12,498 nt of DNA, taken from IMG/VR virus record IMGVR_UViG_2896595138_000006. One strand, given 5' to 3'. Every line of letters begins with the position of its first letter. Within the stretch, counting starts at the first letter, position 1. Of the stretch, positions 4,345 to 12,498 are shown piece after piece. The position numbers and the translations under genes were made by a program. The notes under the pieces were generated by a model that had not been told where the DNA came from, ran no database searches, and was given only the letters and a program-made list of their open reading frames with translations. The DNA is from a virus. Its lineage: Duplodnaviria; Heunggongvirae; Uroviricota; Caudoviricetes.

Positions 4345-4409
4345 GTGTCCGTAAACCTACCCATACCCGCATTATGGCGGGGCGTAACGGGGGAGCCTTT
4401 GCGCTCGCT

Positions 4410-4502
4410 GGTTTCTTTGCTGCCAGTCTGTCAACCCTGTTACGTCCCGCCACCATGTTTGACAGCGTGCTGGCGAGACTCCTTACATCAAGCAAAGGAG
4501 CC
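4410..4502 (+). promoter_or_regulatory. Unit-2 leader element: anti-Shine-Dalgarno segment (4410-4421) complementary to the Shine-Dalgarno region (4491-4502) of the second icd-like ORF
   Basis: GGTTTCTTTGCT can pair with AGCAAAGGAGCC over 12 positions (10 Watson-Crick plus 2 G-U), covering the Shine-Dalgarno sequence AAAGGAG (4494-4500). Confidence 0.35.
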
Positions 4503-4906: not shown

Positions 4907-6103
4907 TTATGACCCCTGCGGGGTATAAAAAGTCCCGTCGCGCATCATGGCGAACAGAACGTCGCAGCGTCGTCTCGCCAGGGCGATAAGCGCCTGATTG
5001 TGTCGTTTTCCCTGACTCATTTTGCGGGTGTAGTAAGCCCTGGAGAGCGGATCCCTGAGCGCGGCGAAGGCCAACAGGAACAACGCCCGTTTGAGAGCTT
5101 TATTACCCCGTCGCGAGGGATGCTCACCGCGTATTGACGAGCCGGATCGCCGAGTTACCGGCGCAAGGCCAGCATAAGCAGCGAGATGTGCGGCAGAGGC
5201 GAAGGCGCGGCAGGCGACCTCGGTGAGGAGTCTGGCTGCGGTCCTGACACCGACTCCGGGCATACTGGTCAGGACCGGGTAAAGAGGGTGAGCAAGAACT
5301 CGCTGTTCTACCTCAAGCGCCACCTCGTCTCTTTGCTTACGCAGCGTGATGAGCTGGAGTGCCAGACGTGGCAGTACTACGGCAGCGGCATTCGTGCCGG
5401 GAACGACGACGGTTTGTTCGGCCAGTGCCTGAGCTATGTCTGCTGCAAGGCGTTTACCCAGACGAGGCGCAAGTTTGCAGAGCTGGGCTGCCAGCTTCTT
5501 CTCACCCAGCGAAGCGAGTTTTTCTGGTGAGGGATATCGCTGGAGAAGATCGAGTACCGCCGGGTGCTCAAGTCTCGGACCGAGAACGCGCTCCAGTGCC
5601 GGATGTATCTGGGTCAGAAGGCCGCGGAGACGGTTGCTGGCCTGCGTTGTCTGTGCGGCAAGATCATCATCGAAGCCGCAGAGCATGGAGAGTTCGGCGA
5701 TTTGCTCGTCAGCCAGTTTCAGCGTGCGTAGCGCGTGAGGCAGGGTACGGGCAGCTTCGGCAATGATGGCAGCGTCACGAGCATCAGTTTTAGCTTCACC
5801 GGCGTGTAAGTCGGCTATGCGGCGCATGGCCAGTCCAGGGAGGTATCCGACAAGGACTCCTTCTGAGCGGGCAACGGCGACAGGTAACGCACCGATGGTA
5901 GCTGGCTGATCAACAACCAGCAGTATCTGACCATGTTGTTTCAGGTCAGATATTAGCGACCTGAGTTTGTTTTCGTCGTTGGGTAATGCTTTATCGAACA
6001 GGCGTTTACCTGAACGATTAATGGCAACAGCGTGATGCGTATCTTTACCGACATCAACGCCGATAAAGACCTGGACGGATTCGTAATCGCTGGATTCGGT
6101 CAT
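4907..6103 (-). CDS. IS110-family transposase/recombinase (N-terminal DEDD RuvC-like domain plus C-terminal Transposase_20 domain)
   Basis: N-terminus VFIGVDVGKDTHHAVAI and C-terminal LTSMPGVGVRTAARLL...AAYAGLAPVTRRSGSS are the hallmark motifs of IS110-family enzymes. Shine-Dalgarno AGGGAG lies 5 nt before the ATG on the minus strand. Confidence 0.9.
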   Translation of the reverse strand: MTESSDYESVQVFIGVDVGKDTHHAVAINRSGKRLFDKALPNDENKLRSLISDLKQHGQILLVVDQPATIGALPVAVARSEGVLVGYLPGLAMRRIADLHAGEAKTDARDAAIIAEAARTLPHALRTLKLADEQIAELSMLCGFDDDLAAQTTQASNRLRGLLTQIHPALERVLGPRLEHPAVLDLLQRYPSPEKLASLGEKKLAAQLCKLAPRLGKRLAADIAQALAEQTVVVPGTNAAAVVLPRLALQLITLRKQRDEVALEVEQRVLAHPLYPVLTSMPGVGVRTAARLLTEVACRAFASAAHLAAYAGLAPVTRRSGSSIRGEHPSRRGNKALKRALFLLAFAALRDPLSRAYYTRKMSQGKRHNQALIALARRRCDVLFAMMRDGTFYTPQGS

Positions 6104-6873: not shown

Positions 6874-8624
6874 AACTGGCACCGAACGTAAAAAAACAGC
6901 CACGCGGAATAAAACACAAAGACACAGAGGTAATTATCTTTGCGGGTAGTGATGCCTGGGCACACGCGAAACAGTGGCAGGAACATGACGCGCGTACAGC
7001 CGGAGATAATGAGCCTCCTGTGTGGCTTGGAGAGCAGCAGCTATCCGAACTGGATAATCTGCAAATTGTGCCGGATGGCAGAAAATCAGCACGCATATAC
7101 AGAGCCGGACATCTTGAGCCTGTAATGATCAAGGCGATTGGTCAGAAGCTGGCGGCGGCAGGTGTACAGGATGCAAATTTTTATCTTGAGGGTATGCACG
7201 GCCAGGAGGTGCAGAACTGGCGCGAATATCTGGCCCGTGAACGCCAGAATCTTTCTGATGGTCTGGTCATTGAGCTTCCGGTAAAGCAAAAGGCGCAACT
7301 TTCGCAGATGGCAGACAGTGAGCGCGCACAGATGCTTGCTGGTCGATTTGATGGCGTTTGTGTGCATCCGGAAAGTGAAATCGTTCACGTATGGCGCGGC
7401 GGGATATGGTGTCCGGTCAGCACAATGGAACTGAGCCGCGAAATGGTGGCGGTTTATTCAGAACACGGGGCCACATTCAGCAAGCGGGCAATTAATAACG
7501 CCGTTGAAGCGTTAAAAGTTATTGCTGACCCGATGGGCGAGCCGTCCAGTGATTTGCTACCGTTCACTAATGGTGTGCTTAACCTGAAAACGGGGGAATT
7601 TTCCCCGCACACGCCGGAGAACTGGATCACCACGCACAACGGCATTGAGTACACGCCACCAGCACCAGGGGAGAATATCCGCGACAACGCGCCAAACTTT
7701 CATAAATGGCTTGATCACGCAGCCGGAAAAGACCCGCGCAAGATGATGCGCATATGTGCCGCGCTTTACATGATTATGGCGAACCGGTACGACTGGCAGA
7801 TGTTTATTGAGGCCACCGGAGACGGCGGGAGCGGTAAAAGTACATTCACACACATAGCCAGCCTTCTGGCAGGGAAACAGAACACGGTAAGCGCTGAAAT
7901 GACATCGCTTGATGATGCTGGTGGACGTGCGCAGGTTGTCGGGAGTCGTCTTATCGTCCTGGCTGACCAGCCGAAATATACAGGCGAAGGAACGGGCATC
8001 AAGAAAATCACGGGCGGCGACCCCGTGGAAATTAACCCGAAATATGAAAAGCGTTTCACGGCGGTAATCAGGGCGGTGGTGCTGGCGACCGACAACAACC
8101 CGATGATATTCACCGAACGGGCCGGAGGTGTGGCACGTCGTCGCGTGATTTTCCGTTTCGACAATATCGTCAGTGAGGCCGAAAAAGACAGGGAGCTACC
8201 GGAAAAGATTGCGGCTGAAATCCCCGTTATTATCCGCCGATTGCTGGCGAACTTTACCGACCCTGAGAAGGCACGGGCTTTACTACTGGAACAGCGTGAC
8301 GGTGATGAAGCACTGGCAATAAAGCAACAGACGGATCCGGTTATTGAGTTTTGCCAGTTCCTGAATTTTCTGGAGGAAGCGCGCGGCCTGATGATGGGTG
8401 GCGGTGGTGATTCAGTGAAGTACACGACCAGGAACAGCCTTTACCGCGTCTATCTGGCGTTTATGGCATACGCAGGCAGGAGCAAACCGCTAAACGTAAA
8501 TGACTTTGGCAAGGCTATGAAGCCTGCCGCAAAAGTTTACGGACATGAATATATTACGCGGAAAGTTAAGGGGGTAACGCAGACTAACGCAATAACAACA
8601 GACGAGTGCGACGCGTTTTTATAA
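6870..8624 (+). CDS. Primase/helicase, phage P4 alpha-like (D5-N-type plus SF3 helicase domain)
   Basis: 584 aa. Walker A motif ATGDGGSGKSTF and the surrounding pattern (IVLADQP, VLATDNNP) match the P4-family primase C-terminal helicase domain as remembered. The N-terminal 200 aa are consistent with a Toprim-like domain. Followed by the iteron cluster. Confidence 0.88.
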   Translation: MKLAPNVKKQPRGIKHKDTEVIIFAGSDAWAHAKQWQEHDARTAGDNEPPVWLGEQQLSELDNLQIVPDGRKSARIYRAGHLEPVMIKAIGQKLAAAGVQDANFYLEGMHGQEVQNWREYLARERQNLSDGLVIELPVKQKAQLSQMADSERAQMLAGRFDGVCVHPESEIVHVWRGGIWCPVSTMELSREMVAVYSEHGATFSKRAINNAVEALKVIADPMGEPSSDLLPFTNGVLNLKTGEFSPHTPENWITTHNGIEYTPPAPGENIRDNAPNFHKWLDHAAGKDPRKMMRICAALYMIMANRYDWQMFIEATGDGGSGKSTFTHIASLLAGKQNTVSAEMTSLDDAGGRAQVVGSRLIVLADQPKYTGEGTGIKKITGGDPVEINPKYEKRFTAVIRAVVLATDNNPMIFTERAGGVARRRVIFRFDNIVSEAEKDRELPEKIAAEIPVIIRRLLANFTDPEKARALLLEQRDGDEALAIKQQTDPVIEFCQFLNFLEEARGLMMGGGGDSVKYTTRNSLYRVYLAFMAYAGRSKPLNVNDFGKAMKPAAKVYGHEYITRKVKGVTQTNAITTDECDAFL

Positions 8625-8636
8625 TTTTTTGTAATT

Positions 8637-8855
8637 GCTGTCTACCTGAGCAAAGGAAAATACATTTAATTCAGTACATTAAGTTAGGTAGACAGCTTTT
8701 TTTTACTGTCTACCCACTATCTACCCTCTCTACCTGATTTTACCTGAATCAGACAGGGAGGTAGACACGGGGTAGATAGTGGATAAAAACACTCTACCCC
8801 GCTGAAAGCCGCGCCATTACTGGCATGAGGGCCAGCAAGGTAGATAAGGTAGACA
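8637..8855. repeat. Iteron cluster, probable replication origin (ori/crr-like): about 10 copies of the octamer TGTCTACC / GGTAGACA and close variants
   Basis: TGTCTACC at 8639-8646 and 8707-8714; TATCTACC at 8718-8725; TCTCTACC at 8727-8734; GGTAGACA at 8687-8694, 8760-8767 and 8848-8855; GGTAGATA at 8771-8778 and 8839-8846; partial copies at 8738-8744 and 8793-8799. An 11-bp perfect inverted repeat (8637-8647 / 8686-8696) flanks an AT-rich 38-bp spacer and is followed by a T8 run. The octamer resembles the P4 alpha-binding repeat TGTTCACC. Confidence 0.65.
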
Positions 8856-8902
8856 AGGGGAGGCACAACTCAAAACTTTTTAAACGAGGGGTAAAAATAA
8901 AC

Positions 8903-9064
8903 ATGCACACTTCAGGAAAATTTAATAAATCACTCAAAAAACGCAGAGACAGAACAGAACCGAAATATCGCGCGTTAGACATGACAGAGCACGCTTTAAA
9001 GGTGGCAATCAGAACGATAGACCGCCACGCGGGGAAGGATACGCGAAGGAACATCCCGACCTGA
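8903..9064 (+). CDS. Hypothetical small basic protein (53 aa)
   Basis: ATG at 8903 with GAGGGG about 12 nt upstream. Lys/Arg-rich. The 5' part of the longer ORF in the track overlaps the iterons and was trimmed. Confidence 0.3.
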   Translation: MHTSGKFNKSLKKRRDRTEPKYRALDMTEHALKVAIRTIDRHAGKDTRRNIPT

Positions 9065-9176
9065 TAAGCGCATTCATGACCACAGCAGCGGCAAACTTTG
9101 CCACGCTGACAGAACGGGAGATTGCCGAAGCGGAACAGGTAACAACCATCAACGTTAAAACCGGAGAGGTGGAATC

Positions 9177-9587
9177 ATGACAGCACAGATAGCAGCTTAC
9201 GGACGGTTGGTGGACGACCCGCAGGTAAAACAGACCAGCAAGGGCACACCGATGACGCTGGCGCGTATGGCGGTATCGCTGCCATGCAGCCAGGCACAGG
9301 ACGGACAGGCGACGTTATGGCTATCGGTGATGGCATTTGGTAAGCAGGCCGACTTCCTGGCTAAACATCAAAAAGGCGACGTTGCCAGCGTATCCGGCAC
9401 GATGCAGGTCAGCCAGTGGACCGGACAGAACGGGGAAACGCGGCAGGGTTATCAGGTTATTGCCGACAGCGTAATCAGTGCCCGAGCGGCACGCCCTGGC
9501 GGGAACAGACGCAAAACCACAGGCACACAGGGTAATCAGCCACCAGCGGGAGACGATGACCCCTACGGTGATGATATTCCGTTCTGA
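9177..9587 (+). CDS. ssb: Single-stranded DNA-binding protein (SSB), phage/plasmid type
   Basis: 136 aa. OB-fold pattern (G.L..DP.V.......P..LA......WLSVMAFGKQADFLAKH.KGD...V.G......W....G..R.G) followed by a Gly/Gln-rich linker and the acidic tail DDDPYGDDIPF characteristic of SSB. Shine-Dalgarno GGAGAGGTGG upstream. Confidence 0.85.
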   Translation: MTAQIAAYGRLVDDPQVKQTSKGTPMTLARMAVSLPCSQAQDGQATLWLSVMAFGKQADFLAKHQKGDVASVSGTMQVSQWTGQNGETRQGYQVIADSVISARAARPGGNRRKTTGTQGNQPPAGDDDPYGDDIPF

Positions 9588-9595
9588 ACGCACAG

Positions 9596-9617
9596 GCCGG
9601 AGAAAATCCGGCTTTTT
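9596..9617 (+). terminator. Rho-independent terminator after ssb (GCCGGA-gaaaa-TCCGGC followed by T5)
   Basis: Stem 9596-9601/9607-9612, T run 9613-9617. Confidence 0.6.
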
Positions 9618-9623
9618 GTACCC

Positions 9624-9667
9624 AAAAAAAGCCCGATAAGTACAGGAGGAAGCTTATCGGGCTTTTG
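9624..9667. terminator. Second, probably bidirectional terminator (A7, 11-bp perfect stem AGCCCGATAAG / CTTATCGGGCT, T4)
   Basis: Stem 9630-9640/9653-9663 with a 12-nt loop, an A run on the 5' side and a T run on the 3' side. Confidence 0.5.
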
Positions 9668-9740
9668 CTTACGAGGTTAACAGCATGGTGACTACTGTTG
9701 TCGTAAATCATTTCATAATTTGCAATGCAACTCAATTCTA

Positions 9741-9797
9741 TTGCACAAAATGCAACTATGATTATAATTATAACTGGATGTACATCCAGTTATAATT
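9741..9797 (+). promoter_or_regulatory. Promoter of the head module (TTGCAC 9741-9746, 16-bp spacer, TATAAT 9763-9768) overlapped by a 32-bp perfect palindrome operator (9766-9797)
   Basis: AATTATAACTGGATGTACATCCAGTTATAATT is perfectly self-complementary about the 9781/9782 centre and overlaps the -10 hexamer and start region. Direct repeats TGCAACT lie at 9725-9731 and 9751-9757. Confidence 0.5.
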
Positions 9798-9824
9798 TTT
9801 TAAGTCGAAAAGGAATTTCTGACT

Positions 9825-10031
9825 ATGACAGAAGAGAAAAAAGGCGGGGTGACAGTTTACATAAGCCCCGATATCGTGGAGGCGCTCAAGGAACGCCACC
9901 AGCAGAACGTAAAAGCGGGCATTGCGGCAGGACTTGATCCGCTGGCGATGGTTGAGCCGTCAACAGGCTGGCAGGTACGCGCCTATTTACGTGCGGCGCT
10001 TGGCATGAATCAGACTCATGAGGGTGAATAA
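9825..10031 (+). CDS. Hypothetical protein (68 aa), first gene of the head module
   Basis: AAGGA lies 10 nt upstream. Stop overlaps the capsid gene start (TAATG), suggesting translational coupling. No recognisable motif. Confidence 0.5.
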   Translation: MTEEKKGGVTVYISPDIVEALKERHQQNVKAGIAAGLDPLAMVEPSTGWQVRAYLRAALGMNQTHEGE

Positions 10032-11086
10032 TGGCAGACAAAGCAACGGCACTTAACACTAACCAGCTTTTCGCGTACCTGAATCGCGGGGATATCCCGG
10101 AATTTAAATTCAGTCCGCTGTTTACCACGCTGTTTTTCCCGAAAGTAGCAACCTTCAACACACAAGATGTCATGCTGGATACCCTGGACATTGAAGAAGT
10201 CACCATGTCGGCGTTTTGTTCGCCTGTGGTGGGTAGCCAGGTTCAGCGTGATAAAGGGTACGAAACAAGCACTATCCGCCCTGGCTACATGAAACCCAAA
10301 CACGAAATCGATCCATCAAAAACCATCATGCGCATGGCTGGAGAAGATCCGGCACTGCTTAACGACCCCACCTGGCGACGTATGCGCCTCATTACTGGCA
10401 ACATGCGCCGCCAGATAAACGCCATTAAAGCGCGTGTGGAATGGCTGGCAGTGAATGCGGTCACGACCGGAAAAAACATCATTGAAGGCGAAGGCATAGA
10501 ACGCTATGAAATCGACTGGAATATGCCGGCAAACTGCATTGTCCATCAGGGGCCAGGAAAAAAATGGTCTGAGCAGAATAAAGAGACGCATGATCCGACA
10601 GATGACATCGAGCTATACGCCGAACAGGCCAGCTGCCCCGCCAACGTCATGATTATGGGCGCTGACGTATGGCGCACCTTACGTAGCTTTAAAAAATTCC
10701 GCGAGCTGTACGATCTTTCCCGTGGTTCAGAATCCGCCGCAGAGCTGGCGTGTAAAAACCTGGGCGAAGTGGTGAGCTTTAAAGGCTATCTGGGTGATCT
10801 GGCCCTTATCGTCTATTCCGGCAAATACACCGACAGCGACGGCACCGAAAAATATTTCCTTGAGCCTGATTTGCTTGTCCTGGGCAACACCAGCAATAAA
10901 GGTCTGGTGGCCTATGGCGCGATTATGGATCCGGAAGCGGTAAGAACGGGCGCAACGCAAAACATGTACTACCCGAAAAACTGGATTGAGAGCGGCGATC
11001 CGGCGATTGAGTACGTGCAGACGCACAGCGCACCGCAGCCGGTTCCGGCAGATATCCGCAAATTTGTTACTGTGAAAATTGGTTAA
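10031..11086 (+). CDS. Major capsid protein, lambda gpE-like (Phage_cap_E family)
   Basis: 351 aa. Multiple blocks align by eye with lambda gpE: FKFSPLFTTLFF, PGYMKPKHE, HDPTDDIELYA, LRSFKKF, LGEVVSFKGYLGDLALIVYSGKY, LVLGNTSNKGLVAYGAIMD, YYPKNWIESGDPAIEY and QTHSAPQP. Shine-Dalgarno GAGGGTGA upstream. Confidence 0.9.
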   Translation: MADKATALNTNQLFAYLNRGDIPEFKFSPLFTTLFFPKVATFNTQDVMLDTLDIEEVTMSAFCSPVVGSQVQRDKGYETSTIRPGYMKPKHEIDPSKTIMRMAGEDPALLNDPTWRRMRLITGNMRRQINAIKARVEWLAVNAVTTGKNIIEGEGIERYEIDWNMPANCIVHQGPGKKWSEQNKETHDPTDDIELYAEQASCPANVMIMGADVWRTLRSFKKFRELYDLSRGSESAAELACKNLGEVVSFKGYLGDLALIVYSGKYTDSDGTEKYFLEPDLLVLGNTSNKGLVAYGAIMDPEAVRTGATQNMYYPKNWIESGDPAIEYVQTHSAPQPVPADIRKFVTVKIG

Positions 11087-11097
11087 CGGGAGATTCT

Positions 11098-11401
11098 ATG
11101 GGCACTCCATATGTTGAGTTATATGCAGGCACACAGCAGGTTGCCACGACGCTGGTACATTTTTCCGCTGATGCTGGCGGACAATGGCGAGTTTAAGGCG
11201 TGGGATGGTCAGGAATCTGGCAAGGCTGTTTATCTGACGGCGTACCCCGTGGACACGTCAAAGCAGAAATCAGCACAGTGTTACAAGACGGGGATATTTA
11301 ATATCGCCGCCGTTAACTGGCCCGAGAGCGTCGACACCGACGCGAAAAAATGCGCCGCTTTTGCGGGTTCTGGCGTATCCGTTCAGCCACTGGTGCGATA
11401 A
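11098..11401 (+). pseudogene. Head decoration protein, lambda gpD / phage 21 SHP-like, with an apparent +1 frameshift in a T5 run (11160-11164)
   Basis: Shine-Dalgarno GGGAG lies 6 nt before ATG 11098, and that frame stops at 11194-11196. The gpD-like sequence continues in the +1 frame to TAA 11399-11401 (PLMLADNGEFKAWDG...YKTGIF...WPESVDTDAKKCAAFAGSG versus lambda PLMLDTSSRKLVAWDG...YKSGTF...WPEAASDETKKRTAFAGTA). Deleting one T from the T5 run gives a continuous 100-aa gpD-like ORF. Confidence 0.6.
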
Positions 11402-11413
11402 GCAGGGGGAACG

Positions 11414-11827
11414 ATGGCAATCAATGAAGCTATCATGGCGCTACCGCTGGCGAGTAAATTTAAAGCCGAAGCGCGGGCAATGGCGGACAGAGGTTTATCA
11501 ACCTACGAGGCTATATATCAACTTAACAAACTGGAAGAGCAGGACAAGCCGCGCACTGATGCGATTATGGCGCTTCATGAATCTGACGACTATCAGCCGC
11601 TGTTACGTGCAATGGCAAACGTGCCATGTATTAGCGTCGATAATGCCCGGGAAATCCTGAACATGACCATAGAGCAGGAACGCCCGAAGGTTGCGCCGGA
11701 GCTTACCGCAGCCTTTGAAAACTTTATGGACATGCACAGCCCGCAGGCCGTAAGCCCTGGCATGGCATACGATGGCAGATATCAGGGTGATGACGGCGAA
11801 ATCGATCGCATACTGAAAACCATCTGA
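11414..11827 (+). CDS. Hypothetical acidic protein (137 aa) in the head module
   Basis: Shine-Dalgarno AGGGGGAA upstream of the ATG. Followed directly by a strong terminator. No recognisable motif; predicted largely helical. Confidence 0.6.
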   Translation: MAINEAIMALPLASKFKAEARAMADRGLSTYEAIYQLNKLEEQDKPRTDAIMALHESDDYQPLLRAMANVPCISVDNAREILNMTIEQERPKVAPELTAAFENFMDMHSPQAVSPGMAYDGRYQGDDGEIDRILKTI

Positions 11828-11833
11828 GAAAAG

Positions 11834-11857
11834 GCCGGAGAAATCCGGCTTTTTTTT
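11834..11857 (+). terminator. Rho-independent terminator (GCCGGA-gaaa-TCCGGC followed by T8)
   Basis: Stem 11834-11839/11844-11849, T run 11850-11857. The stem sequence is nearly identical to the terminator at 9596-9617. Confidence 0.65.
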
Positions 11858-11932
11858 GCGGGTCCTTCCGGTGGGGTGGCCTGCCACGGGGCGGGAGCGG
11901 CGCAGAATTTCACTATTTATGAAAATTTTTCG

Positions 11933-12035
11933 GAAACCATGTCCGGTTTCTCTGAAGGTTAACCATTTGAAAAATATAGAAATGCGCTTTCTGCGAACCG
12001 GACATGCGCAAAAATTGAACACTCAAACCGGACAT
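11933..12035. promoter_or_regulatory. Three copies of an 11-bp motif AAACCGGACAT (one inverted) upstream of the last gene
   Basis: ATGTCCGGTTT at 11939-11949 (inverted, inside the GAAACC-N6-GGTTTC dyad 11933-11950), GAACCGGACAT at 11995-12005, AAACCGGACAT at 12025-12035. The last two are 30 bp apart. Confidence 0.4.
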
Positions 12036-12113
12036 ATATGCCGCGTTTCATAAAGTTGTTCGCAAGATGCATGTTTAAAACGCATGAGGGGAGATTTTTG
12101 GGCGAGGTGAACA

Positions 12114-12498
12114 GTGGCTACTCAGACTGAAGTTGCCAGGCATTTGAGTCTGACCGATCGCCAGCTTCGCAGATTACAGAAATTGTTCCCCCATCACTAT
12201 GGAAACCATAACCATGACCGACGCCGAACTACTGAAAGTAATCCGCCGTATTACCGGAATCTGTCAGGCAACAGGCAAACAGGTGGCCACGCAGCCGGAC
12301 AGCGTCACCGCTGAAAATTACGCGCGTGTGGTGGCTGAGGTGATGCGCCGTGACGGTATTGAGCTTAACGGCGTGGATATGCGCAACATACGAACAAGAG
12401 TCCTTGAGTTGCTGGCATATCGTCGCCGTTCTCAACAACGGAGGGAGAGCGCGAAAAATACTTACCAGTGGAGGAAGCCGGAGCACTTACGGCGGTAA
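12114..12498 (+). CDS. Putative HTH-type DNA-binding protein (possibly small-terminase-like or a regulator), apparently frameshifted at a C5 run (12188-12192); alternatively an independent ORF 12214-12498
   Basis: GAGG lies 6 nt before GTG 12114. The N-terminus ATQTEVARHLSLTDRQLRRLQKL looks like a helix-turn-helix, but that frame then becomes low-complexity and stops at 12314. The +1 frame (12199-12498) reads as a normal protein and ends exactly at the window end. Deleting one C from the C5 run fuses the two into a ~128-aa ORF. Confidence 0.4.

Follow-up and report, generated by a model that had tools for sequence, protein, structure and literature searches.

A 32-bp deletion between direct repeats in the head decoration gene of a satellite island

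Reading frames and family of the split gene

The gene at positions 11098-11401 of the window (the whole 12,498-nucleotide stretch of DNA that was analysed) raises the question of why a head decoration protein should begin in one reading frame and continue in another. A reading made from the sequence alone had placed the break in a run of five T residues and had offered a homopolymer sequencing error, a genuine inactivating mutation or a slippage-prone site as the cause. The features that bear on this question were as follows.

11088-11092, + strand: Shine-Dalgarno sequence GGGAG, 5 nt before the ATG at 11098; read from the sequence and kept in intact orthologues
11098-11401, + strand: decoration (gpD/SHP-like, PF02924) pseudogene of 304 nt, the intact form having 336 nt and 111 aa; assigned by alignment and exact reconstruction
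11098-11196, + strand: frame translatable from the native start, with 27 native codons (MGTPYVELYAGTQQVATTLVHFSADAG), 5 aberrant codons (GQWRV) and a TAA stop
11160-11164, + strand: T5 run (TTTTT), a bystander, lying in frame within CAT TTT TCC (His-Phe-Ser) and unchanged in intact alleles
11165-11179, + strand: deletion junction, the sole remaining copy of the 15-bp direct repeat CCGCTGATGCTGGCG
11165-11401, + strand: C-terminal 78 codons (PLMLADNGEF...QPLVR*), now in the +1 frame and with no ribosome-binding site of their own

Frame 1 from the ATG at 11098 ran for 32 codons to the TAA at 11194-11196 (product MGTPYVELYAGTQQVATTLVHFSADAGGQWRV), and the +1 frame was open from 11099 to 11401 with its stop at 11399-11401. 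The coordinates thus agreed with the earlier description of a ribosome-binding site and ATG in one frame and a C-terminal part in the +1 frame. The +1-frame translation was identical to residues 34-111 of an intact allele (protein P0002).

Assignment of the gene to the gpD/SHP family, next to a gpE-like capsid gene, was borne out by profile matches to HDPD (55 bits) and Phage_cap_E (166 bits). With the Pfam HDPD model (PF02924; cut-off, 29.1), the intact orthologue scored 63.3 bits and the +1-frame ORF of the window scored 55.2 bits, and the intact protein matched phrog_49 (head decoration) at 95.5 bits; no NCBIfam model matched the decoration protein. Residues 6-106 of intact P0002 were colinear with the SHP protein of phage 21 (1TD0; E = 6e-14), with no gap at residues 23-33, and the intact protein also aligned with lambda gpD (1C5E, 7VII). 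Identity between the intact protein and the D/SHP genes of lambdoid phages was about 38-44%. Proteins of this family form a trimer on the three-fold sites of the expanded capsid and stabilise it. The intact allele resembles phage 21 SHP and lambda gpD (1TD0/1TD3, 1C5E) over its full length and in its pairing with a Phage_cap_E major capsid gene, but the island gene is satellite-encoded rather than carried by a phage and is frame-broken in the window. Members of the family are encoded by one continuous ORF. In the window, a 32-bp deletion interrupts this ORF after codon 27, which makes the window copy a pseudogene derived from the family and not a functional member.

The closest phage relatives (43.7% identity) were found in ON470596, ON470627, ON470604 and ON470624, records of ~20-27 kb named Escherichia phage vB_EcoM-...R, which may be satellites or partial genomes and not complete phages.

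A repeat-bounded gap at the break

The intact gene in strains with an identical capsid gene (336 nt, 111 aa, with T5 kept) reads HFSADAGVIQEFTPLMLADNG. It contains two copies of a perfect 15-bp direct repeat, CCGCTGATGCTGGCG, spaced 32 bp from start to start. This spacing does not divide by 3, and the copies therefore fall in different frames: in intact alleles the first encodes (S/A)ADAG and the second PLMLA. Two copies 32 bp apart were detected at loci L001, L002, L003, L008, L010 and L015; the window had one copy. The 32 nt absent from the window corresponded to the 17-nt spacer TTATTCAGGAATTTACC plus one copy of the repeat (15 + 17) and could be placed after 11179 or, equivalently, before 11165. 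Reinsertion of these 32 nt after 11179 reproduced the L008 gene exactly, with no other difference in the 304 nt. Alignment with two intact Escherichia coli orthologues, both annotated as 'head decoration protein' (336 nt, 111 aa), opened one gap of 32 nt in the window sequence, with no indel of 1 nt. In a blastn comparison of the window with L001, the HSPs overlapped by exactly 11165-11179, the 15-bp repeat; this segment matches orthologues in both frames because the 15-mer occurs twice, in two frames, in the intact gene. Loss of 32 nt has the same outcome for the reading frame as a gain of 1 nt.

Overall, these results indicated, with a probability of about 95%, that the window gene is a pseudogene of a satellite-encoded decoration protein of the lambda gpD/phage 21 SHP type, orthologous to c1500, and that it was broken by a 32-bp direct-repeat deletion. 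The alleles compared show the one-copy form to be derived from the two-copy form by loss of exactly one repeat and the spacer. The footprint at the junction is the signature of a deletion by slipped mispairing between direct repeats, a mechanism suggested by the structure of the junction, to which recombination at short homologies by some other route would be the alternative. Deletions of this type between short direct repeats follow a RecA-independent textbook route, for which E. coli lacI is the classic case. The likeness to the lacI-type deletions lies in two identical ancestral repeats, a derived allele that keeps one and loses the repeat plus spacer, and independent recurrence. The only quirk of the decoration gene is that the copies are read in different frames, so that the copy left behind agrees with orthologues whichever of the two frames is read, which conceals the breakpoint. 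The repeat itself was unusual in a codon-shuffle test, in which 2 of 5,000 shuffles reached 15 nt; as the gene came to notice through the repeat's own deletion, which is a source of ascertainment bias, no function was inferred from the repeat.

The sequence-only reading had put the frame switch at the T5 run and had regarded an extra T, converting T4 to T5, as the lesion. A single extra T, whether a real +1 insertion or a sequencing error, would then have broken an ancestral ORF of ~100 aa. Removal of one T from the window gene does mechanically yield a continuous 303-nt ORF of 100 aa (...TTLVHFPLMLADNG...), and only four T residues are present at this point in E. coli orthologues. However, the frame-1 similarity to intact orthologues extended 5 codons past the run, through SADAG (11164-11178), and the same T5 lay in frame (TTT TCC, Phe-Ser) in the intact 111-aa alleles L008 and L010. 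ATG and repeat were equally far apart in T5 and T4-G alleles, and hence the two states differ by a G/T substitution (TTT TCC versus TTT GCC) and not by an extra T. The proposal to ask whether T4 is the common state would mislead: T4 is common in E. coli, but it arises by this substitution (Ala/Ser) and not by a change in length. Moreover, T4-G alleles with the 32-bp deletion were also frameshifted, no 100-aa form was present among the cluster members listed (15 per cluster), and the window plus 32 nt equalled an intact allele exactly. The 100-aa ORF is continuous, as had been claimed, but it does not restore the gene: it drops 11 residues that align with SHP and is therefore not the native protein but an artefact of the repair. 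Runs of this kind are unremarkable, TTTTT occurring 112 times in the window with both strands counted. An extra T, real or erroneous, was consequently judged the least probable of the explanations considered, with hardly any weight left to it. A homopolymer sequencing error fails as the cause for the same reasons, namely, the exact reconstruction and the presence of T5 in intact alleles. Among the three options offered, a genuine inactivating mutation was the right kind of event; the mutation was, however, a 32-bp deletion and not the insertion of a T.

A third option, that the site is prone to slippage, would allow a functional, shortened protein still to be made, either by a +1 shift of the ribosome on U-UUU-U (or anywhere within 11111-11193) or by a slip of RNA polymerase on T5. 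The sequence UUU-U lets tRNA-Phe re-pair in the +1 frame, and that frame is open from 11099 to 11401. There is a superficial likeness to programmed +1 sites such as that of prfB, with two overlapping frames that each have homology; unlike genes with such sites, the decoration orthologues are coded in one frame, as single 111-aa ORFs, and the shifted product lacks the 11 SHP-aligned residues and so differs from the native protein. Intact alleles carry the 'slippery' T5 in frame, and hence it was not selected as a shift site. Inspection of the sequence at the site detected no in-frame stop and no Shine-Dalgarno-like or stimulatory element. The UCC codon that follows UUU is not known to be rare, and efficient transcriptional slippage generally needs a run longer than T5. 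A second, downstream frameshift in L011 is as expected for an untranslated region, and the exactness of the 32-nt reconstruction leaves slippage without a role as the cause. Recoding was thus considered highly improbable.

Alleles and recurrence of the one-copy form

An exact look-up of the window capsid protein returned ten loci (L003-L012). The decoration gene was intact in L008 and L010 (336 nt, 111 aa, two repeat copies) and had the 304-nt one-copy form, as in the window, in L004-L007, L009 and L012. In L011 (4068-4370) the gene had 303 nt, the 32-bp deletion being accompanied by a further 1-bp deletion. The L003 gene (4068-4402; 335 nt) kept two repeat copies but had independently lost 1 bp close to its 3' end, with the result that its ORF ran into the next gene. 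The T5 sequence CATTTTTCCGCTG was common to the window and to all loci with the identical capsid protein, whether one or two copies were present. The decoration gene is thus decaying by several routes among strains with an identical capsid gene. One locus, L004 (CP026845), was 100% identical to the window over 7031-12498.

A megablast search with 10950-11500 against complete E. coli genomes detected the region in 598 genomes. The match was in two pieces for 39 of 40 sampled rows, with a span of 581-584 nt in the record against 549-551 nt in the query. Only 2 of the 597 complete E. coli genomes that have the gene, CP027342 and OZ501674 (L013, L014), had a single-piece, full-length match across the junction. 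Both carried the 32-bp deletion together with TTTTG and were labelled 'head decoration protein, frameshifted' by PGAP; one-copy E. coli alleles are thus frameshifted despite TTTTG, and the T4 state does not rescue the frame. The L014 allele was 1 nt from the intact c1500 of strain CFT073 and 22 nt from the window, and L013 was 16-26 nt from every other allele. These distinct backgrounds indicated that the identical 32-bp loss arose at least three times. A search for the junction pattern in GTDB species representatives produced 0 matches, this collection holding one genome per species and being without the allele.

The truncated products of the window were found deposited as Shigella boydii proteins of 92 aa (15 contigs), 96 aa (5 contigs) and 32 aa (1 contig), and 8 contigs carried another deletion-type product, from E. 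coli (92 aa, ...WYILPLML...). The intact T5 allele occurred on 26 contigs, under the name Shigella or S. boydii. The lineage of the window is apparently S. boydii, a name that follows the database labels of identical proteins.

The distribution of alleles bears on whether the 32 bp are present in the real genome and were lost by a collapse of the 15-bp repeats in sequencing or assembly. Assemblers can collapse repeats, but a 15-bp repeat with a 32-bp spacing fits well inside single reads from any platform, and the two-copy form was resolved easily in sister assemblies. At least 7 independent NCBI assemblies, both drafts and chromosome-sized contigs, contained the deletion allele, and the one-copy form also occurred in the 2 complete RefSeq E. 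coli genomes. An artefact of this kind was therefore regarded as very unlikely.

Independent recurrence could also suggest that the deletion is selected, the 32-aa stub, which retains the N-terminal arm of the decoration protein, or the loss of the protein benefiting the island or host, for example, by interference with the stabilisation of helper-phage heads. The N terminus of lambda gpD contacts the capsid, and the identical deletion arose at least three times, both of which would favour such a gain of function. However, a hotspot formed by the 15-bp repeat predicts recurrence by itself, among 597 complete E. coli genomes the deletion is present in only ~2, and other forms of decay were detected at the locus in sister strains. 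Deletion of c1500 was also without a phenotype for λ interference or island transfer (PMC6092414). A new, selected function was accordingly given very little credence. Slightly less improbable, though still a long shot, is that the repeat pair, perfectly conserved in c1500-type decoration genes, is more than a passive hotspot: recurrent, independent loss (in one S. boydii island and at least two E. coli islands) might be selected, with the stub and its N-terminal arm interfering with the stabilisation of helper-phage heads, or the repeats might be a protein-binding site, the loss of which would change how the island behaves.

The island and the consequences of the loss

The direct-repeat deletion lies within a capsid module in which the capsid gene and the 137-aa gene are intact. 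The following features of the module and of the rest of the island were assigned.

1-795: Phage_integrase, profile match, at the island end
1593-2939, + strand: IS4-family transposase gene, 448 aa
3792-3868, + strand: isrK Hfq-binding RNA, Rfam gathering level, 64 bits
3893-3980 and 4370-4457, + strand: C4 antisense RNA, two copies ~477 nt apart, Rfam, 78.6 and 74.8 bits
4907-6103, - strand: IS110-family 'RNA-guided transposase' gene, 398 aa
6870-8624: D5_N/DUF5906 P4-type primase, profile match
9177-9587: SSB, profile match
9766-9797, + strand: perfect 32-nt palindrome AATTATAACTGGATGT/ACATCCAGTTATAATT, followed by TTTTT, just upstream of a 68-aa ORF and the capsid operon
10031-11086, + strand: gpE-like major capsid gene, 351 aa, c1499 orthologue, intact; Phage_cap_E, 166 bits; phrog_29 major head protein
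11414-11827, + strand: 137-aa gene of the capsid module, intact, with its own strong Shine-Dalgarno sequence, AGGGGGA; phrog_1999, 201 bits

Matches to Ash and DUF4222 were also present in the island. The integrase at one end and the P4-type primase, with no tail or lysis genes in the ORF list of the window, are the features of an EcCICFT073-type element, and the sequence points to a decaying satellite of the PICI type. This set of genes matched the yejO islands of E. coli Nissle and FDAARGOS_943. The identical capsid protein was found on at least 24 contigs, and its CFT073 orthologue was of equal length.

Comparison with EcCICFT073 detected the same module order, namely, a 68-aa ORF, a 1056-nt gpE-like capsid gene, the decoration gene and a 414-nt gene; c1499/c1500 (L015 669-2071) matched the window capsid module in lengths and order. 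The c1500 gene (AAN79969.1) was identical to the window gene at 283 of 304 comparable nt (21 differences) and had the same two 15-bp repeats at equal positions. It was intact (336 nt, 111 aa), whereas the window copy was 32 bp shorter. The CFT073 island adjoins phoQ, whereas loci sharing the window capsid gene have an autotransporter gene downstream. Capsid precedes decoration gene in the PICI, and this order is reversed in a lambda-like prophage of CFT073 (L015 45692-47125). The prophage pair lies ~44 kb downstream of the PICI pair (L015 669-2071), and its decoration protein shows no more than distant similarity to that of the PICI.

For the 137-aa gene, RefSeq orthologues are named 'phage head-tail connector protein' or 'hypothetical', phrog_1999 is of unknown function, and a weak match (E = 1e-9) was detected to the C-terminal part of phrog_53, 'head maturation protease'. 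The protein might be scaffold-like (Nu3-type) rather than a connector. In the Nissle island, a gene for the terminase small subunit lies between the 137-aa and 94-aa genes (L002 7116-7658). At 11828-12198 of the window there was no terminase small-subunit ORF, and FDAARGOS_943 likewise had only a 72-nt pseudo-fragment; this variant of the island therefore appears to be without terS. No match to AlpA, Rpp or TerS was detected among the window ORFs scanned, in a window that ends inside the island and is interrupted by two IS elements. Sites resembling cosN with up to 2 mismatches occurred only at 5209 and 8012, which is the chance level; the latter (8012-8023, + strand, GGGCGGCGACCC) is one mismatch from the 12-mer of the lambda/phi80 cosN and lies inside the primase gene. 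The 15-bp repeats were also considered as PICI cosB 'R elements' for Rpp-TerS and were rejected, as there was no cosN-like sequence nearby and the published papers place no cos site in c1500.

Elsewhere in the window, the IS110 copy is flanked by the Icd-like region on one side and the DUF4222/primase genes on the other, a place taken by small ORFs in the Nissle island; IS66 was present in L003, L008 and L010. The isrK and C4 copies lie in the Ash/Icd-like region as a duplicated P1/P7-type C4-icd immunity cassette, and the direct repeats D2, D3 and D6, with a spacing of 456-459 nt, mark this duplication. The palindrome at 9766-9797 was conserved in L004, L006 and L011 and may serve as an operator or as a terminator acting in both directions. 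Rfam had no match in the decoration gene, a tRNA scan detected none, and a promoter/terminator scan of 9500-12498 performed no better than on shuffles.

A course of events can be proposed for the decoration gene. The T5 run arose through a G-to-T (Ala-to-Ser) substitution before the deletion took place, and the 32 bp were probably lost via slipped-strand mispairing of the 15-bp repeats at replication. The loss shifts the frame after codon 27, adding 5 wrong codons before the stop at 11194-11196, and the product from the native ribosome-binding site would be a 32-aa stub only. The C-terminal 78 codons are predicted to be silent because no recognisable Shine-Dalgarno sequence precedes any of the internal ATGs (11111, 11123 and 11171). 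In L011, the second frameshift agrees with neutral decay of a region that would no longer be translated. The loss appears to be tolerated, presumably because the island or host can do without the gene, and the island itself is probably decaying, as is usual in Shigella. In EcCICFT073, deletion of c1499 or c1500 left λ interference and island transfer unchanged (Fillol-Salom et al. 2018, PMC6092414), and this island was packaged in phage-sized capsids (PMC6092414). Gene loss at no obvious cost in the present island is consistent with that study, which covered these two functions.

The window gene is thus an ordinary, real pseudogene of a kind already on record: PGAP flags this lesion in E. coli. 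As the lesion is a real 32-bp deletion and not a homopolymer error, curators and polishing tools should not remove a T; the one-T 'repair' makes a form of the protein that is absent from the alleles and from the cluster members listed. The trap is a general one, in that a deletion between repeat copies read in two frames can lead to misassignment of the breakpoint to any nearby homopolymer. For the biology of these elements, the locus provides one further example of the decay of a satellite island, apparently in Shigella.
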